A stretch of 64,000 nt of DNA from an uncultured Actinomycetota bacterium (lineage in GTDB: Bacteria > Actinomycetota > Actinomycetes > Mycobacteriales > CADCTP01), in the NCBI GenBank assembly GCA_963849885.1, contig CAWKIV010000006.1, forward strand, positions 653,032 to 717,031, given 5' to 3'. A model generated the notes under the pieces. That model was not told the DNA's origin. It did no database searches and worked only from the letters and a program-made list of their open reading frames with translations. The translations under genes were made by a program, and so were the position numbers. Positions 1,970 through 47,729 of the stretch are shown here, in pieces. Every line of letters starts with the position of its first letter. Position 1 is the first letter of the stretch.

Positions 1970-2869
1970 ATGACCGAGGCCGGGGTCGCCCGCGAGGTCG
2001 ACCGGACGACGGTGACCGGGGAGGTGCTGCGGAGCTTCGCCGGCACCCGGGACGCCCGGCTGCGGCAGTGTCTCGAGGTGCTGACCCGCCACCTGCACGA
2101 CGCCGTCCGCGAGCTGGAGCCGACGCTGGCCGAGTGGCGGGCGGCGCTCGACTTCCTCACCGCGACCGGCCAGGCCTGCGACGACGTCCGGCAGGAGTTC
2201 GTCCTGCTGTCCGACGTGCTCGGCGTCTCCTCGCTGGTGGAGAGCCTGACCCGGCGGGCGCCGGGCGCCACCGAGCCGACCGTGCTCGGGCCGTTCCACC
2301 AGGTGGCCTCGCCGCCGCGGGCGCTCGGCGACTCGCTGGACGAGCTCGGCCAGGCCGACCGCGGGCTGGTCAGCGGCCGGGTGCTCGGCATCGACGGCCG
2401 GCCGGTCGCCGGCGCCCAGGTCGACGTGTGGCAGGCCGACGAGGCCGGCCGCTACGACGTCCAGGAGCCCGACCGGCAGCCGCCGGGCAACGGCCGCGGC
2501 CTGTTCACCGCGGACGGGGCGGGCCGGTTCCGGTTCACCACCGTCGTGCCCAGCGCCTACCCGATCCCCACCGACGGGCCGGTCGGCCGGCTGCTGCTGG
2601 CCACCGGGCGGCACCCGTACCGGCCGGCGCACATCCACTTCCTGGTCACCGCGGCCGGCTTCGCGCCGCTGACCACCCACCTCTTCGTGGCCGGCAGCCC
2701 GTACCTGGACTCGGACGCGGTCTTCGCGGTGAAGGCGAGCCTGGTCCGCGACTTCGCCCGGGTGGACGACCCGGACACGGCCGCCGCGCACGGGCTGCCC
2801 AACCCGTACCGGCACGCCTCGATCGACCTGGTGCTCGCCCCGGACGAGGCGGGACCGCGGCCGGGGTGA
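1970..2869 (+). CDS. Intradiol ring-cleavage dioxygenase (hydroxyquinol/catechol 1,2-dioxygenase type)
   Basis: 299 aa. Contains GPF...G.V.G.DG.P..GA.VDVWQAD..G.Y, YPIPTDGP and RPAHIHF motifs characteristic of intradiol dioxygenases. Confidence 0.9.
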   Translation: MTEAGVAREVDRTTVTGEVLRSFAGTRDARLRQCLEVLTRHLHDAVRELEPTLAEWRAALDFLTATGQACDDVRQEFVLLSDVLGVSSLVESLTRRAPGATEPTVLGPFHQVASPPRALGDSLDELGQADRGLVSGRVLGIDGRPVAGAQVDVWQADEAGRYDVQEPDRQPPGNGRGLFTADGAGRFRFTTVVPSAYPIPTDGPVGRLLLATGRHPYRPAHIHFLVTAAGFAPLTTHLFVAGSPYLDSDAVFAVKASLVRDFARVDDPDTAAAHGLPNPYRHASIDLVLAPDEAGPRPG

Positions 2870-3924
2870 GCGGCTGGGAGGGCCGGTCCTTCGTCGTGCC
2901 GCCGCTGCCGACCCGGGTGGTCGCCGGCCCTGGCTCCCGGCGGGACGCGGGCGCCGAGCTGGCCCGGGCCGGGATCCGCCGGGTGCTGGTGCTCAGCACC
3001 CCGCGGGGACGGGCGGCGGCCGACGAGATCGCGGCCGGCGCGGTGGCCACCTTCGACGGCGCCCGCCGGCACGTCCCGGTCGAGGCGGTCGCCGCGGCCG
3101 AGGCGGCGGTCCGGCGGGCCCGCCCGGACGGGTGCCTGGCCGTCGGCGGCGGGTCCACCATCGGCCTGGCCAAGGCGCTGGCGCTGCGCGCCGGCCTGCC
3201 GTACGTCGCCGTCCCGACCACGCTGGCCGGCTCGGAGATGACGTCGATCTGGGGGCTGACCGAGGGCGGCCGGAAGGCCACCGGGCGGGACGAGCGGGTC
3301 CGGCCGGTCACCGCGGTCTACGACCCCGAGCTGCTCGCGTCCCTGCCGGTGCCGACCGCGGTGACCAGCGGCCTGAACGCGCTGGCGCACGCGGTCGAGG
3401 CGCTGTACGCCCCGGACGGCTCGCCGCTGGTGGACCTGCTGGCGACCGAGGGCGCGGCGGCGGTGACCGGGGCGCTGCGCGACCTGCTCGACAGTCAGGA
3501 CATCCAGGCCCGCGCCACCGCCCAGTACGGCGCCTGGCTGTGCGGGATCTGCCTGGGCGCGACCACCATGTCGCTGCACCACAAGCTCTGCCACCTGCTC
3601 GGCGGCCGGTACGACCTGCCGCACGCGGAGACCCATGCGACCGTGCTGCCGCACGTCATGGCCCTCCTGCTGCCCGCCGCGGACCGGGCCGACCGGCTGC
3701 TGGCCGGCGCGCTCGGCGACGACCGGCCGGAGCGGGTGGTGTGGGAGCTCGGCCGGTCCGCCGGCGACCTCTCGCTGCGCGCGCTCGGGCTGCCGGAAGG
3801 CGCGCTCGGCGAGGTCCGCGACCTGGTCCGGCGGGAGGTCGCCGACTCGGTGCCGGCGGCGGGGCTGGACGGCCTGCTGCGCGCCGCGTACCAGGGCGCG
3901 CCGCCGCGGCGGACCGTCACCTGA
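2866..3924 (+). CDS. Maleylacetate reductase (iron-containing alcohol dehydrogenase family)
   Basis: The GTG at 2866 overlaps the dioxygenase TGA (GTGA coupling). The sequence GGGSTIGLAKA...VPTTLAGSEMT...HHKLCHLLGG...PHAETHA is typical of maleylacetate reductases. It is in frame with the tail of track ORF 1840..3924. Confidence 0.85.
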   Translation: MSGWEGRSFVVPPLPTRVVAGPGSRRDAGAELARAGIRRVLVLSTPRGRAAADEIAAGAVATFDGARRHVPVEAVAAAEAAVRRARPDGCLAVGGGSTIGLAKALALRAGLPYVAVPTTLAGSEMTSIWGLTEGGRKATGRDERVRPVTAVYDPELLASLPVPTAVTSGLNALAHAVEALYAPDGSPLVDLLATEGAAAVTGALRDLLDSQDIQARATAQYGAWLCGICLGATTMSLHHKLCHLLGGRYDLPHAETHATVLPHVMALLLPAADRADRLLAGALGDDRPERVVWELGRSAGDLSLRALGLPEGALGEVRDLVRREVADSVPAAGLDGLLRAAYQGAPPRRTVT

Positions 3925-3982: not shown

Positions 3983-4183
3983 ATGACCGAGCTCCCCCTG
4001 CACATCCTGACCGACGCCGGCTTCACCGCCGAGGAGGCCGACTCCGTGGTCCGGCACCTCAAGGCCGGGGTCAACCTGCACGACGACCGCCCGCAGACCG
4101 ACCGCATCGACGTCGAGGCGCTGCCCCCGGAGAAGAAGGACGCGGTGGACCGCTTCACCAAGGCGGTCGCCGCGGACGCGTGA
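3983..4183 (+). CDS. Small acidic hypothetical protein (66 aa)
   Basis: ATG start and essentially 100% G/C at third positions, which argues for real coding. No family recognised. Confidence 0.6.
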   Translation: MTELPLHILTDAGFTAEEADSVVRHLKAGVNLHDDRPQTDRIDVEALPPEKKDAVDRFTKAVAADA

Positions 4184-4225
4184 CCGGCCCCCGGCGGCAG
4201 GACGCGTGACCGGCCCCGGCGGCAC
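4175..4225. repeat. Tandem duplication (about 25-26 bp x2) of GACGCGTGACCGGCCCC(C)GGCGGCA
   Basis: Copies read directly at 4175-4200 and 4201-4225. Each contains a TGA (4181 is the stop of the 66-aa ORF; 4207 is in a different frame). Confidence 0.85.
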
Positions 4226-14453: not shown

Positions 14454-15136
14454 GCGCCGCGTACGAGCCGCCGCACGGGCCGCCGGAGTTCCCGCCCGGC
14501 CGGCCGCCGCTGCAGCCGATCGTGCCTCGCTGGACCCCGCCGCAGCCCGGCCGCCCGGAGCCGTCCCGGTCGCCGCTGCCCGGCTTCCCGCTGGTCGCGC
14601 CGCCGTCGCCCGGCTCCGCCGAGGACCGGCTGCGGGAGCGCGGGATCGTGCTGCTGTCCGGCTTCCTCGACGGCGCCGCCGCCCAACGGGCCGCGGCCGC
14701 CCTGATGCTGCTGGACGCCGAGCACGACGGGCCGGTCCGGCTGCACCTCGGCTGCCCGGACGGCGACCTCGACGCCGCGCTGCTGCTGGCCGAGACCGTC
14801 GACCTGCTCACCCTGGACACCACCGCGCTGGTCACCGGCGTGCTCGGCGGGCCGGTGCTCGCCGTGCTGGCCGCGGCCGGCCGCCGGGAGGCGCACCGGC
14901 ACGCGTTGCTCCGGCTGCGGGAGCCGACCGGCACCGCGGCCGGCCGGGCCGACCGGCTGGCCGCGGACGCCGAGCAGCACGCCCGGCAGGTCGCCCAGCT
15001 GCACGAGCGGCTGGCCGCGGCGACCGGGCGGGACGCCGCTGAGATCGCCGACGACCTGCGGGCCGGCCGGCTGCTCACCGCCGAGCAGGCCGTCGACTAC
15101 GGCCTGCTCCACGCCGTGCGGCCCGACCGCCGCTGA
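14450..15136 (+). CDS. ClpP-like protein lacking the catalytic triad, with a proline-rich N-terminal extension
   Basis: The ATG at 14450 overlaps the XRE stop (ATGA). Residues about 60-222 are colinear by eye with the E. coli ClpP core (VLLSG...LHLGCPDGDL...LVTGVLGGPV...LRLREP...LLTAEQAVDYGLL). The Ser/His/Asp positions read Gly133/Arg157/Gly206. The first about 55 aa are strongly Pro-rich. Confidence 0.7.
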   Translation: MSAAYEPPHGPPEFPPGRPPLQPIVPRWTPPQPGRPEPSRSPLPGFPLVAPPSPGSAEDRLRERGIVLLSGFLDGAAAQRAAAALMLLDAEHDGPVRLHLGCPDGDLDAALLLAETVDLLTLDTTALVTGVLGGPVLAVLAAAGRREAHRHALLRLREPTGTAAGRADRLAADAEQHARQVAQLHERLAAATGRDAAEIADDLRAGRLLTAEQAVDYGLLHAVRPDRR

Positions 15137-15267
15137 CAGCTCGGCGGCCGCAGCTGACCGGACCGCCCGACCGCCGCTCGCCAGACGGCGGCTACCGCTG
15201 ACCGGACGGCAGCGGCCGGCAACCGGACGGCCCGACCGCCATCGACGGACCAGTTGGTGTCAACGGG

Positions 15268-18553: not shown

Positions 18554-19849
18554 ATGAGGTCGTACGCGCGCGGGGGGCTGCTCGCCCTGGGCACGGCAAT
18601 GGTGATGCTGGTCGCCGCGAGCCCGTCCTGGGCCGCCGGGCCGGTGCTCACCAACCCGGCCAACTGGACGCCGCAGATGGTGGCGCCGGCCGGTGCCGGC
18701 TACGTCCGCCAGCTCACCCCGTGCGGCCCGAACATGTATGCGGTGGGCACGTTCAGTCAGTTCCGCAGCCCGGCTGACGGCGGCGCGGTCTTCACCCGCA
18801 ACAACGCGATGTCGTTCAACGGGACGACCGGGCGGATGACCGCGTTCAACCCCAACACCGACGGCATCGTCAACAGCATCGCGCTGGACCCGGCCGACTG
18901 CTCCACCGCCTACATCGGCGGCAAGTTCAGCACCGTCGGCGGCCAGCCGGCGACCAACCTCGCCGCGGTCGACACGGCCACCGGCGCGCTCAGGACCGGC
19001 TTCAAGCACACCGCCACCGGACAGGTCAGCGCGCTGGTCTTCACGCACGGCCGGGTGCTGGTCGGCGGCTACTTCAACAAGGTCAACGGGGTCGACCGGG
19101 CCAAGCTGGCCAGCCTCCACCCGGTCACCGGCACGCCGGACGACTACCTGACGCTCGGCCTGACCGGCTTCTACCCGGGCCGGACCAACCCGACCCGGGC
19201 GTACAACTTCACGCTCAGCCACGGTGGCGACCGGATGCTGGTCACCGGCGTCTTCACCGCGGTCGGCGGGGTGCACCGGGAGCAGGTCTTCCAGCTCGAC
19301 CTCGGCCCGACCGCGGCCACGCTCAACCCGTGGACGTCGACCGACTTCTACGTGCACTGCGCCGACTCGCTGCCGTTCTACATCCAGGACGCGACCTACT
19401 CGCCGGACGACACCACCGTCTACATCGCCACCACCGGCTACAAGGCGCGCTTCGACCCGCTGCACACGGTGGTCTGCGACGCCACGGCGGCGTACCCGAG
19501 CACCGGCGGCACGGTCGCCCGCAAGTGGGTCAACTACACCGGCTGCGACTCGCTCTACACCGTCGTCGCGGACGAGAGCACCGTGTACGTCGGCGGCCAC
19601 CAGCGCTGGCTGAACGGCGAGAACATCTGCGACCGGGCCGGCGGCGGGGCGCTCGACCGGCCCGGCATCGGCGGCATCGACCCGGTCACCGGCCGGGCCA
19701 CCAGCTGGAACCCGACCCGCTCCCGCGGCGCCGGCGCGGACGACCTGGTGATCGCGTTCGGCGGGCTGTGGGTCGGCAGCGACGACCAGAACACCGCCAC
19801 CCAGTGCGGCCGGGAGTACCACCCCGGCATCTGCTTCCTGCCGTACTGA
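18554..19849 (+). CDS. Secreted beta-propeller repeat protein (DUF5122/delta-60-like repeats)
   Basis: The ATG at 18554 gives a signal peptide (MRSYARGGLLALGTAMVMLVAASPSWA). Repeated GG.F..V.G...L..L motifs are present (IGGKFSTVGGQPATNLAAVD, VGGYFNKVNGVDRAKLASL, VTGVFTAVGGVHREQVFQL). Confidence 0.75.
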   Translation: MRSYARGGLLALGTAMVMLVAASPSWAAGPVLTNPANWTPQMVAPAGAGYVRQLTPCGPNMYAVGTFSQFRSPADGGAVFTRNNAMSFNGTTGRMTAFNPNTDGIVNSIALDPADCSTAYIGGKFSTVGGQPATNLAAVDTATGALRTGFKHTATGQVSALVFTHGRVLVGGYFNKVNGVDRAKLASLHPVTGTPDDYLTLGLTGFYPGRTNPTRAYNFTLSHGGDRMLVTGVFTAVGGVHREQVFQLDLGPTAATLNPWTSTDFYVHCADSLPFYIQDATYSPDDTTVYIATTGYKARFDPLHTVVCDATAAYPSTGGTVARKWVNYTGCDSLYTVVADESTVYVGGHQRWLNGENICDRAGGGALDRPGIGGIDPVTGRATSWNPTRSRGAGADDLVIAFGGLWVGSDDQNTATQCGREYHPGICFLPY

Positions 19850-19883
19850 CGCCGTACTGACCCCGTACTGACCCCGTACGGAC
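19840..19883. repeat. 11-bp tandem repeat x4 (CCGTACTGAC-type) spanning the stop codon
   Basis: Read directly as gccgtactgac / gccgtactgac / cccgtactgac / cccgtacggac. TGA triplets at 19847 (the gene stop), 19858 and 19869 fall in three different frames. Confidence 0.85.
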
Positions 19884-19940
19884 CCGGGCCGGCGCCCGCG
19901 CCGCGCCGGCCCGCCCCGGCGGACCTGCCAAGATGCCGGG

Positions 19941-26789: not shown

Positions 26790-27515
26790 ATGGCGACAGC
26801 GCGGGCGGCGCGACCTCTGTCGACGGCCGAGGCCGTCCTCGTCGCCACGCTCGGATACCTGGTGCTGCTCATCTCGCTCACCGGGGCCCGGATCGCCCGC
26901 GAGAGCGACGCGGAGCCCGTCACCGAGGTGCTCGCGGTGCGACCGGTCGCCCAGGTGCAGCCGGCCGCGGCCGCCCGGGCCGCGCCGGCGCCGACCTGCG
27001 TCGGCCCGACCACGGTGCCGTACTCGTACGCGGCCGCGCCGGGCGTGGTGGAGCCGCTCGCCTTCGGCCCGCCGGTGGAGCCGACCGGGCCGCGCTCGGC
27101 CGCGGCGGTCAACGGCGTGCTGATCCAGCGGCTCTGCGGCGGCCCGACCACGCCGGGCGGGCCGGTGCGCGGGCCGGACCGGCGGCTGTTCGCGGCGATC
27201 GACGCGGCGGTCAACGACCGGGACCCCAACCGGCCGCTCACCCAGGCCCAGTGGGCCGCCGGGGTGGACCAGTTCATCATCCGGGACGGGCTCTTCACCG
27301 ACGCGCAGGTGGTGACCCGGACCGTCCCGGCCGGCGCCCCGACGTTCGGCATGAAGGTGGTGTCCCGGACCCCCGGCGTCGACCCGGTGGTGGTCCGGAC
27401 CCGGATGGCCCGCGCGGACACCAGCCGCTACCTGCTGCTGCCGGTCCGCAGCGCCAGCGGCCGCGTGGTCACCCTCACCCTGCGGCTGCGCTGCGGCTTC
27501 CAGCCGGTCCTCTGA
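26790..27515 (+). CDS. Membrane-anchored hypothetical protein
   Basis: 241 aa with one N-terminal TM helix (AVLVATLGYLVLLISL) and high GC3. No family recognised. Confidence 0.6.
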   Translation: MATARAARPLSTAEAVLVATLGYLVLLISLTGARIARESDAEPVTEVLAVRPVAQVQPAAAARAAPAPTCVGPTTVPYSYAAAPGVVEPLAFGPPVEPTGPRSAAAVNGVLIQRLCGGPTTPGGPVRGPDRRLFAAIDAAVNDRDPNRPLTQAQWAAGVDQFIIRDGLFTDAQVVTRTVPAGAPTFGMKVVSRTPGVDPVVVRTRMARADTSRYLLLPVRSASGRVVTLTLRLRCGFQPVL

Positions 27516-27527
27516 TCCCCGGGCCCC

Positions 27528-27650
27528 GCCGCGAGTGACGGCGGCCCCCCGCGAGTGACGGCGGCCCCCGCGAGTGACGGCGGCTACTGCACGATCACTC
27601 GCGGAAGCCGGACGTCACTCGCGGAAGCCGGACGTCACTCGCGGAGGTGG
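27528..27650. repeat. Inverted tandem-repeat array: 3 x (GCGAGTGACGGCGGCCCC) followed by 3 x (TCACTCGCGGAAGCCGGACG)
   Basis: Left-arm copies read directly at 27531-27550, 27551-27569 and 27570-27584. Right-arm copies are at 27596-27615, 27616-27635 and 27636-27648. CCGCGAGTGACG and CGTCACTCGCGG are reverse complements (12 bp). The array fills the gap between convergent genes ending at 27515 and 27654. Confidence 0.9.
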
Positions 27651-27653
27651 GCG

Positions 27654-28421
27654 CTAGCTCAGCCGGGTCTCGGCGTAGACGGCCATCGCGTCCCGCAGGT
27701 AGGCGACCAGCTCGTCGTTGCCGCCGCCGATGGTGCGGCGGAACCGCTCGTCGTCGACGTACATCCGGCCCAGGCCGTTGTACGCCGCCGCGTCCGGCGT
27801 CCAGAACAGGCTGACCACCTCGTAGTGCAGCTGGACCAGCTCCTGCACCCGCGGGTCGTCCACCGGCACGCCCGCCGCGAGCAGCGGCGCGAGTCCACTG
27901 TGGACGCGCTCGTACCCGGACCTCGCCTTCTCCGCGTCGGCCGGCGACCAGCCCCGGATCCGCTCGTACGACGCGTCGACCGCCTCGTCGCCCCAGCGCT
28001 CCCGCGCCTCCGCCTCGTACGGGTTGTGCTCGAAGCCCTCGAACATCCTCTCCGCGGCCATGTCCCCTCCTTCCTCGATGCTGTCGATGGTGTGTTGCAC
28101 GGTGCGGGCGAGCCGGGCCAGCCGGCCGCGCTCGGCCAGCAGCCACTCGCGGTGCTTGCGCAGCACCGCGACCGTGCTGTCGCGGTCGGACCGGCGCAGC
28201 ACCTCGCCGATCGCGTCGAGGCCCAGCCCGAGCTCGCGCAGCAGCAGGATCCGCTGCAGCCGCAGCAGCTCCGCCCGGCCGTAGTGCCGCCGACCGTCGT
28301 CGGCGACCCGGGCCGGCGGCAGCAGCCCGATCGCGTCGTAGTGGCGCAGCGTCCGCGATGTCACCTTGGACATCCGCGCCACCTCGGCGATCGACCAGCT
28401 CCCGTCCCGCACGACAGCCAC
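27654..28421 (-). CDS. MerR family transcriptional regulator with TipAS-like antibiotic-recognition domain
   Basis: 255 aa. MerR HTH (WSIAEVARMSKVTSRTLRHYDAIGLL) and a C-terminal TipAS-like domain (FEHNPYEAEARERWGD...LHYEVVSLFWTPD...YVDDERF). Confidence 0.9.
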   Translation of the reverse strand: MAVVRDGSWSIAEVARMSKVTSRTLRHYDAIGLLPPARVADDGRRHYGRAELLRLQRILLLRELGLGLDAIGEVLRRSDRDSTVAVLRKHREWLLAERGRLARLARTVQHTIDSIEEGGDMAAERMFEGFEHNPYEAEARERWGDEAVDASYERIRGWSPADAEKARSGYERVHSGLAPLLAAGVPVDDPRVQELVQLHYEVVSLFWTPDAAAYNGLGRMYVDDERFRRTIGGGNDELVAYLRDAMAVYAETRLS

Positions 28422-28454
28422 GGTACGAGTTGACGCTGCGTCAACTACAAGCGT

Positions 28455-29366
28455 TCAGTCGCCGGCGGAGTCCGCGGCCGGGGCCGCGCCCACCGTGACC
28501 CGGCCCTGGTCGGGGCCGAGCCGGAAGAGCACCGGAGTGCAGGTCGCCGTCTGCACGGCCACGATCTCGTAGACCTCGCCCACCGCTGCGACGGCCACCG
28601 CGTCGAGGTCCGACAGGTCGCAGTCCGCACCGAGGCGCTGCTGCAGCTCGGGCCGGTCCTCCTCGTCCACGACGACCGTGACCGGCGTCGGCGTGCGGAC
28701 GGCGACCGGGGCCGTCGGCTGGTCGGGCGGGTTCGCCGCCCAGGCGAAGGCGGCGATCCCGGCGGCGGTGAGGACGGCCGCGGCGAGGATGGCGCGCCGC
28801 GCGGTGCGGTAGGCGTGGCGCAGCAGCGAGAAGCTGGCCCGCTCCAGCACGTGGCGCTGCGTCCCGCTCAGCAGCAGCGCCCAGTGCTGCGCCGCGTCGG
28901 CGGCCTGCTTCTTCGCCGGGTCCGTCGGGTCCTCGGCGTGCGCCCTGTACGTGTCCCGGCGCCCCTCGACGGCGTCCCGGTACGCCTCGTACAGCGCGCC
29001 CACCGACCCGTAGCCGCCGAGGACGACCTTGTCCCCGGCGATCCGGTCCAGCGCGGGGTCACCGTCCGGGCGCTGGGCGAGCCACTTGAGGGTCACGAAG
29101 GTCTTGGTGACCACCGCCCCGGCCGCCCCGATCGCGATCACGACGCCGACGACCGCGACGGCGAGGCCACCGAGGGCCCAGCGCAGCCGCCCGTCCTCGA
29201 GCTCGCCCAGCCCGGTGAGCTGGAGGCCGGCCACCAGGATGGCACCGACCGCGGCGAAGCTCCCGAGAAGCCACTTCGCGGAGTCGCGGATCCGCTCCGC
29301 CGCGGCGGCCAGCGGGGAGGCCGGTGCCGCCGGCTCCTCCTCGGCATTCCCCGGCGCCGAGGCCAC
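28455..29366 (-). CDS. Hypothetical membrane protein (3 predicted TM helices)
   Basis: 303 aa with high GC3. TM helices near WLLGSFAAVGAILVAGL, LGGLAVAVVGVVIAIGAAGAVV and AILAAAVLTAAGIAAFAWAA. No family recognised. Confidence 0.65.
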   Translation of the reverse strand: MASAPGNAEEEPAAPASPLAAAAERIRDSAKWLLGSFAAVGAILVAGLQLTGLGELEDGRLRWALGGLAVAVVGVVIAIGAAGAVVTKTFVTLKWLAQRPDGDPALDRIAGDKVVLGGYGSVGALYEAYRDAVEGRRDTYRAHAEDPTDPAKKQAADAAQHWALLLSGTQRHVLERASFSLLRHAYRTARRAILAAAVLTAAGIAAFAWAANPPDQPTAPVAVRTPTPVTVVVDEEDRPELQQRLGADCDLSDLDAVAVAAVGEVYEIVAVQTATCTPVLFRLGPDQGRVTVGAAPAADSAGD

Positions 29367-29372
29367 CGGGAG

Positions 29373-29801
29373 CTACCGGCCCTCGAGGCGGTCGGTGACC
29401 GCCTCCACCTGGAAGCGCACCGGGCGGCGCTCGGCCCGGGCCGCCTGCAGGCGGTCGACCACCTCCGCCATGTCCAGCGCCACCCCGGTCGGGATGGTGA
29501 TGACCACCGGCCTCGCCCCGGCCACCACCTCGTCCGGCTGTGTGAACAGCTCCCGGTGCAGCACCCGCGGGTTGATCGTGACGGTGTCGACCGTCGCGTA
29601 GGCGACGCCACCGGGATCGAGCTCGATCGGGCCCAGCAGCACCGGGTCGACCGGCGAGGCCTCCGGGTCCGGCGGGACCGCGCCCTCCGGATCATCCGGC
29701 GTCGCCGGCTCGGTGGGCACGCAGGTGAAGCTGACCAGCACCCCGTTCACCGGGATCTTGATCGTCTGACCGCAGGTGCCGAATATCTGCATGCTCGGCA
29801 T
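29373..29801 (-). CDS. Hypothetical protein (about 142 aa)
   Basis: ATG at 29801, with an alternative at 29792. High GC3. The stop lies 6 nt before the start of the membrane protein. No family recognised. Confidence 0.6.
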   Translation of the reverse strand: MPSMQIFGTCGQTIKIPVNGVLVSFTCVPTEPATPDDPEGAVPPDPEASPVDPVLLGPIELDPGGVAYATVDTVTINPRVLHRELFTQPDEVVAGARPVVITIPTGVALDMAEVVDRLQAARAERRPVRFQVEAVTDRLEGR

Positions 29802-29883
29802 TCCGCCCGCCACCGCCGCCCCCCTCGCGTCACGATTGGGGCGCACCGTAGCGCGCCGCCGGCCGGTGGGGGCGGGAACGGGA

Positions 29884-30972
29884 TTAGTCGAGCAGCGGCG
29901 CGTACCCCGGCTTGATCACGTCCACGATCATCGCCAGCCGCTCGTCGAACGGCAGGAACGAGGACTTCATCGCGTTGACCGTGAGCCACTGCAGGTCGGC
30001 CCAGCCGTAGCCGAACGCCTCCACCAGCGCGGCCATCTCCGAGGACATCGAGCAGCCGCTCATCAGCCGGTTGTCGGTGTTGACCGTGACCCGGAAGCTC
30101 AGCCGGCGGAGCAGGCCGATCGGGTGCTCGGCGATCGACTTGGCCGCGCCGGTCTGCACGTTGGACGACGGGCACAGCTCCAGCGGGATCCGCTTGTCCC
30201 GCACGTACGCGGCGAGCCGGCCGAGGTCGACCCGCCCGTCCTCGTGCGCGGTGATGTCGTCGATGATCCGCACGCCGTGGCCGAGCCGGTCGGCCCCGCA
30301 CCACTGGATCGCCTGCCAGATCGACGGCAGCCCGAACGCCTCGCCGGCGTGGATGGTGAAGTGCGCGTTTTCCCGCTGCAGGTATTCGAACGCGTCCAGG
30401 TGCCGGGTCGGCGGGTGCCCGGCCTCCGCGCCGGCGATGTCGAAGCCGACCACCCCGCGATCCCGGAACCGGATGGCCAGCTCGGCGATCTCCATCGACC
30501 GGGCGTTGTGCCGCATCGCGGTGAGCAGCGCGCCGACCCGGATCCGGTGCCCGGCCGCGGCCGCGGTCGCCGAGCCCGCGGCGAAGCCGGCCAGCACCGC
30601 CTCCACCACCGAGTCCAGGTCGAGGCCCTCCTCGACGTGCAGCTCGGGGGCGAACCGGACCTCCGCGTAGACCACGCCGTCCGCGGCCAGGTCCTCGGCG
30701 CACTCGGCCGCCACCCGGTGCAGCGCGGTCGAGCTCTGCATCACCCCGACCGTGTGCGCGAAGGTCTCCAGGTAGCGCTCCAGCGAGCCGGAGTCGGCGG
30801 CGTCCCGGAACCAGGCGCCCAGCCCGGCCGGGTCGGTGCTGGGGAGGTCCGCATAGCCGGACTCGCGGGCCAGGTCGACCACCGTCGCCGGCCGCAACCC
30901 GCCGTCGAGGTGGTCGTGGAGCAGCACCTTGGGCGCGCGGAGCAGGGACTCGGCAGTGATCGGGGTCGGCAT
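29884..30972 (-). CDS. add: Adenosine deaminase
   Basis: 362 aa. Contains the [31 protein letters not shown] and NTDNRLMS metal/catalytic motifs. Confidence 0.95.
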
Positions 30973-31089
30973 GACGAGACTTTACCGGGCGCGGGCGTCT
31001 TACGGGGGGTGGTGGCGTGGACGCCCGGGGTGGCCTAGGCTACCGCCGCGAAACGTACTATTCGGTCTTATGCGGCAGGGGGCGGGCCG

Positions 31090-31422: not shown

Positions 31423-32174
31423 TGCCGTCGTACGCGCAGCTGGTCGCCTGCGACCCGCAGGCGTTCGTGTCCGCCGGGCAGGCCTACCAGCGGATGGCGC
31501 AGGGCTTCGGCCGGGTGCGGGCCGCGTTCCAGCAGGGGATGGCGGTGCTGGACGCCAACTGGGTGGGCGTGGCCAAGGACACCGTGCTCGGCCGCAGCCG
31601 GCACCTCGACGGCGGGCTGGCGGCCGGCGGGCAGGAGGCCGACCAGACCGGGCAGACGCTGGTCACCCTCGGCCAGGCGCTGGCGGCCGCGCAGGCGTCG
31701 CTGCGGACCGCGGTGGCGACCGCGCACGGCGTCGGCCTGGTGGTCACCCCGAGCGGCGACGTCTTCAACCCCAACCCGGTCCACAACCAGGCCGGCAACG
31801 CGATGCTCGGGCCGGTGCGGGCGATGATCGCGGCCGCGGTGGCCGCCGGCACCGCGGCGGACTCGGCCGCGGCCGGCCGGATCGGGGTGCTCGCCGCCGG
31901 CAAGCTGGTCAGCACCTTCGGCTCCGGCGGCTCCGGGTCGGCCGCGGTGGTGCAGCAGGTCGCCGCCGTGGCCACCGGACAGTCGCCTGTGGACGGTCCG
32001 CGGACCGCGGCGGTGATCGCCGCGCGGGTGGCCGCCCAGGCCGACTTCGGCGCGCTCGGGCCGGTGGACCGGCGGGAGATCGACGAGGTGGTCGGCCCGG
32101 TCGGCGTGATCGGCGCCGCCGGCCTCGCCGACTGGCTGGCCCGCCGCCCCCCACCCACCCCCTCCCCCGACTGA
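31422..32174 (+). CDS. WXG100-like N-terminal domain protein (N-terminal module of DUF1023-type T7SS-associated proteins)
   Basis: The ATG overlaps the upstream TGA by 1 nt. Contains WxG (DANWVGVAKD) in a helical hairpin context, then a Gly/Ala-rich region. No recognisable C-terminal enzymatic domain. Confidence 0.55.
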   Translation: MPSYAQLVACDPQAFVSAGQAYQRMAQGFGRVRAAFQQGMAVLDANWVGVAKDTVLGRSRHLDGGLAAGGQEADQTGQTLVTLGQALAAAQASLRTAVATAHGVGLVVTPSGDVFNPNPVHNQAGNAMLGPVRAMIAAAVAAGTAADSAAAGRIGVLAAGKLVSTFGSGGSGSAAVVQQVAAVATGQSPVDGPRTAAVIAARVAAQADFGALGPVDRREIDEVVGPVGVIGAAGLADWLARRPPPTPSPD

Positions 32175-32182
32175 CCCGCCCT

Positions 32183-32400
32183 CCCGAGTGGGCACCCTCC
32201 GCCGAGTCGACGGACGCGCTGGCGCGCGAGTGACGGCGCCGGCGCGCGAATGACGGCGGTGGCGCGCGAGTGACGGCGGTGGCGCGCGAGTGACGGCGCG
32301 CTGGCGCGCGAGTGACGGCGGTGGTGGCGTCACTCGGGCGGTCGGGACGTCACTCGGGCGGTCGGGACGTCACTCGGGCGGTGGCGGCGTCGGGGAGTCA
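32183..32400. repeat. Inverted tandem-repeat array: 5 x (GGCGCGCGAGTGACGGCGGT, 20-23 bp) followed by 3 x (CGTCACTCGGGCGGTCGGGA, 20 bp)
   Basis: Left-arm copies start at 32221, 32241, 32261, 32281 and 32303, with degenerate copies at 32183-32220. Right-arm copies are at 32328-32347, 32348-32367 and 32368-32387. The core CGAGTGACG / CGTCACTCG is self-complementary between arms. The array lies between convergent genes ending at 32174 and 32398. Confidence 0.9.
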
Positions 32401-33021
32401 GTCGGGGCGGAGGATGCCGCGGGCCATGGCGGTGGTGACCGCCGCGGTCCGGTCGCCGACCCCGAGCTTCTCGAAGGTGCGCAGCAGGTGCGTCTTCACC
32501 GTCGCCTCGCTGATCAGCAGCACCCGGCCGATCTCCGCGTTGGACAGCCCGCGCGCGACCTGAGCCAGCACCTCCACCTCGCGCCGGGTCAGCGGGTCGG
32601 CGCCGGCCGACCGCACCCGGGTGACCAGCTTCGCCGCCACCGGCGGCGCCAGCACGGTCTCGCCGCGCGCGGCGGCCCGGACCGCGTCGGCCAGGTCCCG
32701 GCGCGGCGTGTCCTTGAGCAGGTAGCCGGTCGCGCCCGCCTCGACCGCGCGGAGGATGTCCGCGTCGGTGTCGTACGTGGTCACCACCAGCACCCGGGCC
32801 GACCCGGCCGCGGTGATCTGCCCGGTCGCGGCGACGCCGTCCACCCCGGGCATGCGCAGGTCCATCAGCACCACGTCCGGACCCAGCTCGGCGGCCAGCC
32901 GGACCGCGTCCTGCCCGGAGCCGGCCTCGCCCACCACGTCGAGGTCGGGCTCCGCGTCGAGCATGGCCCGCAGGCCCTCCCGTACGACCGGGTGGTCGTC
33001 CACCACCAGCACCCTGATCAC
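32398..33021 (-). CDS. NarL/LuxR-family response regulator
   Basis: The GTG at 33021 overlaps the kinase stop. Receiver domain (VLVVDDHPVVREGL...DVVLMDLRMPGVDG) and LuxR HTH (LTRREVEVLAQVARGLSNAEIGRVLLISEATVKTH). Confidence 0.9.
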   Translation of the reverse strand: MIRVLVVDDHPVVREGLRAMLDAEPDLDVVGEAGSGQDAVRLAAELGPDVVLMDLRMPGVDGVAATGQITAAGSARVLVVTTYDTDADILRAVEAGATGYLLKDTPRRDLADAVRAAARGETVLAPPVAAKLVTRVRSAGADPLTRREVEVLAQVARGLSNAEIGRVLLISEATVKTHLLRTFEKLGVGDRTAAVTTAMARGILRPD

Positions 33022-45201: not shown

Positions 45202-46392
45202 GTGAGGGCAGTGCGGGCGGTCGCGGTCGCCGCGGCGGTGACGGTCGGCGTGGTGGCGGTGGGCGCGGCGGGCCCGGCCTGGGCGGCGCCGGCGGTGGCG
45301 CCGCAGCCGAGGCCGACGGCCACCCCGACGCCGGAGCCGCCGCTGCCCGGGCAGGGCGCCGACGGCCAGACGGTGGGCGGCCCGCGGCTGGCCAGCCGGG
45401 GGCTGGTGCTGGCGCCGGGCGCGCCGAAGCCACCCAAGGACCTGACCGCGCACGGCTGGCTGGTGGCCGACCTCGACACCGGCGAGGTGCTCGGCGCGCG
45501 GGACGCGCACGGGCGCTACCCGCCGGCCAGCACGCTGAAGATGCTGACCGCGCTGACGCTGCTGCCGAAGATCAAGGACCGGCGGGTGCTGCTGACCGCG
45601 ACCGGCTCGGACGTCAACGTCGACGGCACCCGGGTCGGCCTGGTCGTCAACGGGCGCTACACGCTGGACGTGCTGTTCCAGGCGATGCTGATGGCCTCCG
45701 CCAACGACGCGGCCAACGCGCTGGCCCGGGCGGCGGGCGGCACCGCCCGCACGCTGACCGAGATGGACGAGGTGGCGCACCGGCTGCAGGCCTTCGACAC
45801 GCACGCGGCGACGCCGTCCGGGTTGGACGGTCCGGGTCAGCTGACCTCGGCGTACGACCTGGCGCTGATCGCGCGGGCGGCGCTGGCCCGGTCCGACTTC
45901 CGGAAGTACACCGCCCAGCTGCGGGGGTGGATCCCGGCGCAGAAGCCGAAGTACAAGCGGTTCGAGTTCGCCAACGGCAACAGGCTGCTGTACGAGTACC
46001 AAGGGGCGATCGGCGGGAAGAACGGGTTCACCGACGCGGCCCGGCACACCTTCGTCGGGGCCGCCAAGCGCGGGACCCGGCGGCTGGTGGTCACGCTGAT
46101 GTTCGGCGAGCAGACGCCGGTGCGGATGTCGGTGCAGGCGGCGCGCCTGCTCGACTGGGGCTTCGCGCAGCGGTCGGCGGTGCCGGTCGGCGCGCTGGTC
46201 GATCCGGTGGACCCCGCCGCGATGCCGACGCCCACGTCCAGCCCGGTGCCCGAGTTGCGGCCCGCCTCGGCCGGCCCGTCCGACTCCGGCGGGGACGGCC
46301 CGCCGCTGCTCCCGGTCGCCGCCGCCCTCGGCGCCGGGCTCCTGGTCCTCGCCACCGGCTACGCCGTCACCACCCGCCGCCGCCGCACCTGA
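45202..46392 (+). CDS. D-alanyl-D-alanine carboxypeptidase (serine-type PBP) with C-terminal membrane anchor
   Basis: GTG at 45202 and a signal peptide. SxxK (ASTLK), SxN (SAND) and KxG (GKNGFTD) motifs, plus a C-terminal TM helix and RRRR tail. Confidence 0.85.
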   Translation: MRAVRAVAVAAAVTVGVVAVGAAGPAWAAPAVAPQPRPTATPTPEPPLPGQGADGQTVGGPRLASRGLVLAPGAPKPPKDLTAHGWLVADLDTGEVLGARDAHGRYPPASTLKMLTALTLLPKIKDRRVLLTATGSDVNVDGTRVGLVVNGRYTLDVLFQAMLMASANDAANALARAAGGTARTLTEMDEVAHRLQAFDTHAATPSGLDGPGQLTSAYDLALIARAALARSDFRKYTAQLRGWIPAQKPKYKRFEFANGNRLLYEYQGAIGGKNGFTDAARHTFVGAAKRGTRRLVVTLMFGEQTPVRMSVQAARLLDWGFAQRSAVPVGALVDPVDPAAMPTPTSSPVPELRPASAGPSDSGGDGPPLLPVAAALGAGLLVLATGYAVTTRRRRT

Positions 46393-46443: not shown

Positions 46444-46541
46444 CAAGCCGGACCCGTGCAGCCGACCCGCGCAGCCGGACCCGCGCAGCCGGACCCGCGC
46501 AGCCGGAAACCGCCGACCCGGCGGGTCAGCGGCGGGTCAGC
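46444..46541. repeat. 14-bp tandem repeat x5 (GCAGCCGGACCCGC-type) plus 11-bp x2 (GGCGGGTCAGC)
   Basis: Read directly as caagccggacccgt / gcagccgacccgc / gcagccggacccgc / gcagccggacccgc / gcagccggaaaccgc (46444-46513), then ggcgggtcagc x2 (46520-46541). Confidence 0.85.
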
Positions 46542-47729
46542 GGCGGCGGCGGAGGTAGCGGGATCCGGCCGCGGCGGCGCCGGCGCCGAGGGCGGCTCCG
46601 GTGCCCACCAGCACGCCGGCCACCGCGGCGGGGTTCGGCGAGCCGTTGCGCCGGTCGGCGGCTCCGGCACCGGCACCGGCGCCGCATCGCCGGCGGCTCC
46701 CGCGCCAGCGGCGGCGCCCGCGCCGGCCGCGGCGGTCCGGCCGATCGTGGGGGCGGGGCCGACCAGGCCGCGCCCGCCCGGCGGGCGGTCGTCGACGCCC
46801 ACGGCGATGCCCTCTTCCGGCGTGTCCGTGCACTCGTCCGCCGCCGCCGGCTGCCGGCCGGTCGCCGTCCAGGCCGCGGCCAGCAGCATGAAGCGGGAGA
46901 CCAGGTCGATCCAGATCAGCAGCCCGACCGCGCTGGCGAAGACCCCGTACGTCGGGTTGCCGGTCACCCGGGTCAGGTAGAAGGTGCCGACCACCTTGAG
47001 CACCTCGTAGCCGACCGCGGCCAGCAGCGCTCCGCTGAGCACCGTCCGGTAACGCACCGGCCGCCGCGGCAGCCGGACGAACAACCAGGCGAAGATCAGC
47101 GTGTCCGCGGCCAGCGCCAGCGCGAGGCCGACCGCCGTGACCAGCGTCCCCATCCCCCACACGCCGTCCAGCCCGACCGCCTTCACCAGCTGGTCGGCCG
47201 CGGCGGTGCCGCCCGCGGTGAGGCCGATCGACAGCAGGATCCCCAGCCCGAGCCCGGCCAGCACGAGCAGGTCACCCAGCTTGGCCTTGAGGAACTTCTC
47301 CTCGGTCCGCTCGCAGCTCCACACCACCTGCAGCGCGGTGCGCAGGTTGCCGATCCAGCCGAGCCCGACGAAGGCCACACCGGCGAGACCGATCAGGCCG
47401 ATGGCCCCCCGGTTGGCGATGATCGAGGTGACCGAGTCGGACAGCTGGGTGCCCAGGTCGCCGGGGACGTTGTCGCGGATCAGCTCCTGCAGGTCCTGCT
47501 GCAGCGCGTCGTTGTTGGCCAGCACGAAGCCGGCGACCGAGATGGCGAGCAGGATCAGCGGGAAGAGCGCGAGGAAGCTGAAGTAGGTGATCGCCGCGGC
47601 GAGGTGGTCGCCGTTGGTGGACCTGTAGCGCTGGTAGGCCCGGACCAGGTGGTCCAGCCAGGGGAGGCGCTGCCGCAGCCGGCGCAGAGTGCCGGTGGCG
47701 CGGTCCTTGAGGCCGCCGGAGCCGGCCAC
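46537..47729 (-). CDS. YihY/BrkB family membrane protein; C-terminal frame ambiguous
   Basis: The N-terminal about 300 aa are clear (DHLAAAITYFSFLALFPLILL...). The start frame runs on to 46359 but becomes W/C/R-rich with falling GC3. A second frame gives a plausible TM plus basic tail (NPAAVAGVLVGTGAALGAGAAAAGSRYLRRRR, stop at 46537). A frame switch near 46655-46690 is therefore inferred. Confidence 0.7.

Follow-up and report, generated by a model that had tools for sequence, protein, structure and literature searches.

The 64,000-nucleotide stretch analysed here, called the window below, has a G+C content of 76% and comes from an uncultured actinobacterium (contig CAWKIV010000006.1 of assembly GCA_963849885.1). 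Between the 3' ends of two convergent genes it carries an inverted array of short tandem repeats (locus 1), and a second array of the same repeat family (locus 2) lies 4.7 kb apart from it. We think it probable that these arrays are palindromic minisatellites belonging to a dispersed, core-conserved, stop-adjacent family that resembles the REP/BIME repeats and the TRIT hairpins, with arms that grow by slippage and a folded product that acts as a 3'-end hairpin for both mRNAs. Each unit is 19-22 bp long and combines a core that does not vary, C-GAGTGAC-G(G), with a linker that drifts freely, and the units stand head to tail in two arms facing each other (→→→ ←←←). The hairpin would be a structure acting at the RNA level that defines or protects the 3' ends of both convergent mRNAs, acting as a barrier to 3' exonucleases and to read-through from the convergent gene, possibly with the help of Rho or some other factor.

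At locus 1 the convergent stop codons are 138 nt apart and the array occupies the whole gap, from the TGA at 27513-27515 of a plus-strand gene to the TAG at 27654-27656 of a minus-strand gene, just as a preliminary description of the region had stated. The left arm (27525-27583, plus strand) consists of three direct units of 19-20 bp (CCCSCCGCGAGTGACGGCGG) at 27525-27544, 27545-27564 and 27564-27583. Every one of them contains the 12-mer CCGCGAGTGACG (27529-40, 27549-60 and 27568-79), with the core CGAGTGACG starting at 27532, 27552 and 27571. A central spacer, the presumptive loop region of the hairpin (CTACTGCACGA, 27584-27594), leads to the right arm (27595-27647, minus strand), made of three inverted 20-bp units (TCACTCGCGGAAGCCGGACG) at 27595-27614, 27615-27634 and 27635-27645+, which read CGAGTGA(C/T) on the minus strand. 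Reading of the sequence and a repeat finder both confirmed the inverted tandem arrangement between convergent genes; the TRF scores are 110 and 102. Two details of the preliminary description had to be corrected. The three right-hand units had been described as each containing the exact reverse complement, which is true of two (CGTCACTCGCGG at 27613-24 and 27633-44) and fails for the innermost, a degenerate unit (GATCACTCG) that reads GATCACTCGCGG; and the innermost 12-mers are separated by 13 nt instead of by a spacer of 10-11 nt.

The linkers of the two arms at locus 1 are unrelated (GCGGCCCCC on the left vs TCCGGCTTC on the right, as reverse complement), and the core is the sole sequence common to both arms and both loci, left-arm units reading GAGTGACGGCG and right-arm units GAGTGACGTCC (as reverse complement) at each of them. 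The TGA codons at 27536, 27556 and 27575 cover, with the gene stop at 27513, the three frames of the plus strand, and the TCA triplets at 27595, 27615 and 27635 do the same for the minus strand; checking by hand agreed with what had been claimed on this point. The TGA of the left arm lies in the sense orientation for the plus-strand gene, and that of the right arm in the sense orientation for the minus-strand gene.

Locus 2 (32183-32400), where the unit family had been said to recur, was recovered by sequence inspection and by the repeat finder alike. It lies between another convergent gene pair, a hypothetical gene on the plus strand and, on the minus strand, a histidine-kinase/response-regulator/LuxR gene identified from Pfam and from the gene table of a related contig (L002). 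The left arm (32183-32326, plus strand) opens with two degenerate outer units (CGAGTGGGC at 32186 and CGAGTCGACGG at 32205), followed by five units of 20-22 bp (GCGCGARTGACGGCG). The right arm (32328-32396, minus strand) has three 20-bp units (CGTCACTCGGGCGGTCGGGA) and, directly against the stop codon (32398-32400) of the histidine-kinase/response-regulator/LuxR gene, a degenerate outer unit. The end of the plus-strand gene (32156-32180, …CCC GAC TGA) is inverted-complementary to that of the minus-strand gene (32392-32416; CCCCGACTGAC / GTCAGTCGGGG), so that both proteins end in Pro-Asp-stop, and the coding ends of both genes seem to have taken up the outermost degenerate units. The 9-mer CGAGTGACG occurs in 12 exact copies in the 64 kb, all of them within loci 1 and 2, against a chance expectation of 1.91 +/- 1.42 copies and a maximum of 6 in 100 shuffles of the window. 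A chance origin of this clustering is excluded.

Three related metagenome-assembled contigs carry both loci: L002, 98.8% identical to the window over 20.7 kb, L001, 91-96% identical, and L328, which is more divergent. Counted as left plus right units, locus 1 has 3+3 in the window (138 nt), 3+4 in L002 (157 nt), 5+6 in L001 (235 nt) and 2+4 in L328 (135 nt); locus 2 has 5+3, 4+5, 3(+2 variant)+4 and 4+4, respectively. The outermost units and the loop are constant across the four assemblies, the locus 1 loop being conserved in the related strains as CTACTGCCA or CTGCTGCCA, and it is the inner units that are gained or lost. In addition, the right-arm linker has been homogenised to ATGCC in L001 vs AAGCC in the window. 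Each arm is thus an independent variable number of tandem repeats (VNTR) locus, with head-to-tail units whose number varies between strains. This variation per arm upholds the earlier proposal that the array arose by unit amplification, and the presence of the arrays in four independent assemblies rules out an assembly artefact. Expansion and contraction of the arms would be explained most simply by replication slippage or unequal exchange between units, and the unrelated linkers of the two arms in the window would follow from independent slippage in each arm. In the '2+2' subfamily described below the whole arm is mirrored. Template switching at quasipalindromes, a known replication error that perfects inverted repeats (PMC7202029), is a plausible way in which one arm could have been copied into the other.

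The array of locus 1 is specific to this lineage and placed at a break of synteny, because the more distant relatives lack it and have other neighbours. In L268-L270, with TipAS proteins 82-90% identical, the downstream neighbour is different, an ordinary single GC-rich hairpin lies between the convergent stops, and no GAGTGAC units were found at the orthologous site. Nothing comparable to the array was found in L329, which has an 86% identical orthologue of the 241-aa gene with a co-directional neighbour. The genes concerned are those that flank locus 1. The plus-strand gene (26790-27515) encodes a conserved hypothetical protein of 241 aa with 149 homologues at E<=1e-30 and no match in a Pfam search; the minus-strand gene (27654-28421) encodes a MerR-family regulator with a TipAS domain (PF13411, PF00376 and PF07739), for which a 100%-identical counterpart (P0001) is present in public assemblies. 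Synteny breaks on the 3' side of the TipAS gene (window 27654-31000 compared with L268, L269, L270 and L329), where the downstream neighbour is, depending on the relative, a glyoxalase, a peptidase S8, a hemerythrin-like gene or the 241-aa gene, and two extra ORFs (open reading frames) lie between the adenosine deaminase and TipAS genes in this lineage only. A different intergenic minisatellite, of about 21-bp units (GACCGCCCGGCGGCACGGG) each forming a small palindrome, is found in L268 at 2860-3080. Since L268 carries this other array, tandem arrays at gene ends are common in the lineage, with various unit sequences.

We searched 185,579 species genomes for pairs of cores at a spacing of 18-22 bp and, under stricter criteria, the Joint Genome Institute (JGI) metagenomes, and each scan gave at least 120 loci. 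The matches listed fall into two classes: arrays of 19-22-bp units in high-GC Actinomycetota, and bare heptamer arrays in other phyla and in phage contigs. Those listed from high-GC Actinomycetota have the same head-to-head architecture between gene ends, which is found in Flexivirga endophytica L045 (2+2), L058, L062, L132 (3+3), L158 (7+2) and L219. Further carriers listed are Flexivirga caeni (1+2), Nocardioides albus, a Jatrophihabitantaceae metagenome-assembled genome (MAG) with 3+3 units in the match listing and 2+3 by exact-core count, and several long-read Actinomycetota MAGs; the metagenome contigs listed include 3+3, 4+2 and 7+2 arrays. No Mycobacterium was found among the listed carrier records. 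The archaeon Halorubrum tibetense (L081, 2130-2273) has eight tandem 19-20-bp units with a CGTCACTCG core 3' of an ORF end, in this case with no inverted partner.

Dispersal was seen for a compact '2+2' element of 65 nt in soil contigs (L135, L147, L152, L162, L167, L168, L183, L196, L215, L221, L222, L223, L230 and L241, nine of these from the single sample Ga0193707). Its consensus in our alignment A1 is ccGCC-GAGTGAC-GGATttcgcgyC-GAGTGAC-GGCC-loop-GGCC-GTCACTC-GrcgcgaaATCC-GTCACTC-GGCgg, with invariant GAGTGAC cores and GGAT…ATCC outer linkers. Fifteen such elements lie in 13 distinct, unrelated flank contexts, that is, in at least 13 loci. Between L147 and L221 the flanks are non-homologous and the elements 93% identical; the orthologous pair L167/L223 shows 92% identity in the flanks and just 83% in the elements. 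The spread over these loci suggests that the '2+2' repeat is interspersed abundantly in the genomes of one or a few uncultured actinobacteria of soil. Judging from the sequences compared, the repeat is an interspersed family and not a one-off duplication, because the core is found at two loci of the window, in several genera and at no fewer than 13 non-homologous soil loci. Interspersion thus amounts to 13 distinct soil-contig loci, 2-3 loci in single MAGs and 2 in the 64-kb window, counts that come from partial genomes.

Within this family the core and the linkers have evolved differently. In a logo of 142 units from hairpin-type elements at GC-rich loci, C occupies position -1 in 97%, G position +7 in 99% and G position +8 in 78% of the units, and the flanks outside C-GAGTGAC-G-G hold less than 0.6 bit; core conservation is in part an effect of ascertainment, as the scans required two exact cores in one arm, a bias that does not extend to the opposite arm or to additional units. 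Alignment A1 has a mean column identity of 75%, with invariant cores and linkers conserved to about 50-60%. Compensatory evolution was not found in the linkers, because complementarity is the same within an element (5.6) as between elements (5.5), and their pairing appears to decay instead of being maintained by compensatory change. Such a pattern bears the signature of a dispersed family whose core would be held constant by a sequence reader rather than by structure alone. The contrast between invariant cores and drifting linkers would imply a sequence-specific reader, either a mobilising nuclease or transposase or a stem-binding protein.

An invariant 9-11-bp core amid drifting spacers with no compensatory change is also what an array of double-stranded DNA binding sites would offer, with boxes about two helical turns apart that might serve supercoiling management or a boundary between convergent units. 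A nucleoid-associated protein, a gyrase or topoisomerase partner, a regulator or an FtsK/TraB-like translocase would be candidate ligands. The dominant periods of 19-20 bp fit this explanation, and Escherichia coli BIMEs, the classical analogue, are reported to bind several proteins (PMC2817692). We nevertheless regard it as quite improbable. The period ranges from 18 to 22 bp and the same heptamer occurs at 7-bp and 14-bp periods in other phyla; copy number is free to vary between strains; and no candidate protein was identified. Moreover, 43 of the innermost pairs run GAGTGAC-loop-GTCACTC and 3 run the opposite way, so that the 5' arm carries the TGA version on whichever strand is read, and this strict polarity, with the anchoring at stops, indicates a strand-specific logic, of RNA or single-stranded DNA.

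Folding of the locus 1 RNA agreed with the expectation of a hairpin from either strand. The predicted energies are -103.7 kcal/mol for the plus strand (z-score -7.7) and -104.8 kcal/mol for the minus strand (z-score -7.2), and none of 200 shuffles was as stable. In the predicted structure the cores form helices and the linkers small internal loops, giving an interrupted hairpin of roughly 55 bp that begins 10-12 nt past each stop codon. Alternative pairing registers, which had also been proposed, are possible given the tandem and often unequal arms. The locus 2 RNA folds at -147 kcal/mol but with a z-score of just -2.8. A search of the whole window with Rfam 15 gave no match at the gathering thresholds, and the E-value mode returned only generic hairpins (miRNA precursors) far below threshold; a known RNA family was accordingly rejected.

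The preliminary description had read these features as a bidirectional terminator combined with an all-frame translational stop; spelled out, this model has a purpose-built intrinsic terminator whose hairpin would halt RNA polymerase arriving from either gene, with all-frame TGAs selected as a translational fail-safe. Much that speaks for it is real, and the proposed mechanism is partly supported: the hairpin is very stable on both strands, it is a GC-rich hairpin directly 3' of a gene as in intrinsic terminators, it sits exactly between convergent stop codons, both strands have stops in all frames, and long, very stable, U-poor hairpins are the usual signature of Streptomyces transcript 3' ends (PMC12207403). 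The part that found no support is the terminator proper. No U-tract, 7-9 nt long in a canonical terminator, follows the stem on either strand (GGTGGGCGCTAG on the plus and GGGGCCCGGGGA on the minus strand at locus 1), a terminator consensus scan of 27500-27660 and 32170-32400 gave no terminator-like site, and in vitro the mycobacterial RNA polymerase failed to terminate at hairpins that have no U-tract, even with NusA and NusG (PMC3993855). For these reasons we do not accept an intrinsic terminator as established, and a canonical role of this kind for the array is unlikely. The stem, about 55 bp and interrupted, is also far longer than the usual 5-15 bp, and its sequence is conserved, not free to covary; pairing would suffice for a terminator, yet in this family the core stays fixed and the linkers lose their complementarity with no compensatory change. 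Two observations support the putative 3'-end hairpin role that we prefer: such hairpins are the Streptomyces 3'-end signature, and plain hairpins occupy the same position in relatives.

The position at gene 3' ends that had been noticed at locus 1 extends to the family: by a crude ORF and GC3 (third-position G+C) heuristic, which was wrong at locus 2 of the window and makes the counts indicative only, ORF ends flank 16 of 41 hairpin-type elements on both sides and 21 of 41 on one side, the elements lying a few to a few tens of nt from the stop codons and in many cases between convergent genes. In about 8 of the 41 the ORF stop is the TGA of the first core. For isolated arrays we compared sense genes ending at the 5' edge of the array with antisense genes ending at its 3' edge, read-through antisense genes being counted, and obtained 49 vs 10 for heptamer arrays (p = 3e-7) and 37 vs 21 for 17-24-bp arrays (p = 0.05). 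The excess of sense over antisense TGA arrays after stops counts in favour of selected fail-safe stops. It can also be explained by survivorship of stop-carrying arrays, which we consider the simplest reason for it. An array with stops in all frames can lie against the end of a gene, or intrude into it, and change no more than a few residues; a stop-less one would lead to frameshifted read-through. The presence of TGA in every frame would thus make the array harmless at a gene end, hence its survival and orientation there, an argument already made for TAACTGA repeats by MacGregor 2015 (PMC4679880). Nor do the periods speak for selection of the stops: the array units range from 18 to 22 bp with 19-20 bp dominant, and avoidance of multiples of three is not convincing, since 37 of 119 non-coding arrays have a period of 18 or 21 against 40% expected from the allowed range, in a count that heptamer-derived 21-mers confound. 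The title of PMC6764699, 'In eubacteria, unlike eukaryotes, there is no evidence for selection favouring fail-safe 3' additional stop codons', points in the same direction. The all-frame TGA therefore probably explains why the arrays are tolerated at gene ends rather than what they are for, and the model of a terminator combined with fail-safe stops appears to us unlikely.

Another explanation would be that the arrays are a neutral by-product. Short tandem duplications would form readily in high-GC actinobacterial genomes and persist solely in the selection-free zone after stop codons, and the array would be an ordinary hairpin whose arms have slipped, devoid of mobility and of any function as a family. 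The VNTR behaviour of the arrays agrees with it, and long simple sequence repeats (SSRs) of 5-11-nt units are known in some Actinobacteria (Mrazek 2007, via PMC4679880). Other duplications in the window also span stops. Those at 920-981, 15121-15207 and 19841-19885, with units of 31, 44 and 11 bp, start in the last codons of a plus-strand ORF and include its TGA (945-947, 15134-15136 and 19847-19849), so that the first copy terminates the protein and the later copies are spare. A further duplication of this type is possible at 4174-4224, although none of the listed ORFs of 100 aa or more ends at the TGA there. The survival of duplications just across stop codons looks like a general habit of this genome. 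What a neutral origin leaves unexplained is a 9-11-nt core shared by both arms, two loci, several genera and 13 unrelated metagenome loci, the invariance of the cores amid diverging linkers, and the 43:3 polarity. We give it a low probability on these grounds. The window contains one more compound repeat, at 46446-46546, in which about 4.5 copies of a 14-bp unit (AGCCGGACCCGCGC) precede 2.5 copies of an 11-bp unit (CGGCGGGTCAG; its reverse complement contains CTGACCC) at the overlap of a plus-strand ORF ending at 46392 with minus-strand ORFs.

The heptamer arrays found by the scans bear on the same question. The (GGACTGA)3 repeat occurs at 34 loci of viral contigs, (CGAGTGA)3 at 17, (GCGATGA)3 at 4 and (CGAGAGT)3 at 5; CGAGTGA as a uniquely favoured heptamer was rejected because (GGACTGA)3 is twice as frequent there, and its abundance and like sense bias count in favour of a neutral origin. 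Pure (CGAGTGA)n arrays were seen in Chloroflexota, Bacteroidota, Verrucomicrobiota, Acidobacteriota, Proteobacteria and phage contigs (L003-L122 and L243-L284; for example L031 3596-3630 and 4180-4207, L083 4663-4764, L095 2143-2272, L044 3672-3734 and L246 6782-6844). Most begin at a stop codon or no more than a few nt away from one, in the sense orientation. A little further downstream, ahead of the next convergent gene, there is often a mirror array of (TCACTCG)m, and the variant units GGGTGAC, GAGTAAC and GAGTAGC are interspersed. Inverted copies also often follow (GGACTGA)n in viral contigs (L285-L318; for example L290, L291 and L287), and the stop-less (CGAGAGT)n of L324 is likewise mirrored. 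The mirroring of heptamer arrays at the ends of genes may be a general architecture, little described so far.

Among known systems the closest analogue is the TRIT element of Mycobacterium (Tuberculosis Rho-independent terminator motif), a palindromic, bidirectional, sequence-conserved hairpin present in 147 copies whose centres lie at about -8 nt relative to stop codons (Gardner et al. 2011; PMC3152330). The array family consists, like TRIT, of palindromic, multi-copy, sequence-conserved hairpins at or over stop codons; both are actinobacterial, conserved in sequence and structure, tied to stops (TRIT partly inside coding sequence) and devoid of a canonical U-tract. They differ in that TRIT is described as a single hairpin, from Mycobacterium only, without tandem arm units or reported variation in copy number. 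The likeness is one of description, the TRIT consensus being shown as a figure.

REP, BIME and REPIN elements (PMC3733652, PMC2817692 and PMC3116915) are likewise short extragenic interspersed repeats found mostly 3' of genes, between convergent or co-directional genes, in clustered arrays and in head-to-head dimers that fold into larger hairpins, and roles in mRNA stabilisation, termination and supercoiling have been proposed for them. The array units begin with CGTC on the inverted strand, which prompted a comparison with CGTC-tagged REPs. A REP is defined as an imperfect palindrome of 20-40 bp with an 8-9-bp stem, a 4-5-nt loop and an unpaired terminal tetranucleotide tag (PMC3733652), GTAG or CGTC. 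The array unit (e.g. CGTCACTCGCGGAAGCCGGA), by contrast, has no internal stem-loop and its CGTC is paired with GACG of the opposite arm, and identity with CGTC-tagged REPs was rejected because the units are not palindromic and the tag is paired. BIME units alternate in orientation (PMC2817692), whereas the array units are direct within each arm with one central inversion. The survey of CGTC and GTAG REPs included no Actinobacteria, and CGTC REPs, too, lack a RAYT transposase (PMC3733652).

The TAACTGA heptanucleotide SSRs (PMC4679880) share with the arrays forward stops in three frames, whereby they overlap only the very end of ORFs, and a sporadic distribution across phyla; CGAGTGA, from the core of the array units, itself forms such heptanucleotide arrays in many phyla. 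Unlike the arrays, TAACTGA repeats lie mostly just upstream of start codons and have no inverted partner, and the units described here are 19-22 bp long, with a linker and in a palindromic arrangement. A CRISPR array was rejected because the would-be spacers, the 8-13-nt linkers, are repeated too, one arm is the inverse of the other and no cas domains were found in the neighbouring genes. BOX elements of Streptococcus pneumoniae and MIRU-VNTR loci of Mycobacterium are intergenic mosaics in which the number of tandem modules varies between strains; BOX elements fold into long stem-loops, and MIRUs follow the direction of transcription and overlap with stop and start codons of the adjacent genes. 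Their units of 45-100 bp are unrelated in sequence to ours, and MIRUs form direct arrays inside operons, not head-to-head ones. Interspersed palindromic repeats and VNTRs were thus already known, and the novelty here is the combination of tandem units mirrored once with an invariant core. A literature search for the repeat strings gave no match, and this family of stop-codon-hugging hairpin repeats in high-GC actinobacteria is apparently undescribed.

Several observations weigh against a dispersed, core-read family of 3'-end hairpins and have to be set beside the evidence in its favour, in addition to the missing U-tract with the behaviour of the mycobacterial polymerase, the partial ascertainment of the core and the crude calls of gene ends. 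The 64-kb window has two elements only, and no simple 1+1 progenitor hairpin with this core was seen in the sequence examined. Neither a target-site duplication nor an empty site could be established for the 2+2 family from the contig fragments compared. No associated transposase was found, and no search aimed at Y1 transposases, the IS200/IS605-type class to which RAYTs belong, was made in carrier genomes; mobility would follow only from near-identical copies in unrelated flanks. Finally, the composition-matched control TGA heptamer (GGACTGA)n gave a sense vs antisense count of 31 vs 4 in viral contigs, and because this control behaves alike, sense orientation and anchoring at stops are general to short tandem arrays that bear TGA and not specific to this core. 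Even so, we hold the dispersed palindromic minisatellite to be the probable reading.

The arrays are hypervariable between strains about 99% identical, which makes them possible strain-typing markers, and they are sites where short-read assemblies collapse or break. Mirrored arrays with TGA in sense after stops, seen for CGAGTGA and GGACTGA heptamers in many phyla, may be a general, unrecognised route by which bacteria and phages acquire 3'-end hairpins. The definition of mRNA 3' ends in high-GC actinobacteria, in the absence of U-tracts, is an open problem, and the TRIT hairpins, whose discoverers postulated a factor binding the conserved double-stranded motif (PMC3152330), have had no known partner since 2011. 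To these the arrays add a second, more widespread family of stop-adjacent hairpins, whose core is a defined bait sequence for the postulated factor, and cultured carriers (Flexivirga endophytica and Nocardioides albus) make Term-seq and deletions feasible. A bolder idea, which we put forward only tentatively and rate as rather unlikely, is that C-GAGTGAC-GG might be the recognition site of one factor across Actinomycetota, either a mobilising nuclease or transposase or a stem-binder that enables termination or 3'-end processing without U residues. If true, this would be a new stop-anchored 3'-end system, an actinobacterial counterpart of REP/RAYT or of the postulated TRIT factor, with arms free to expand as VNTRs.

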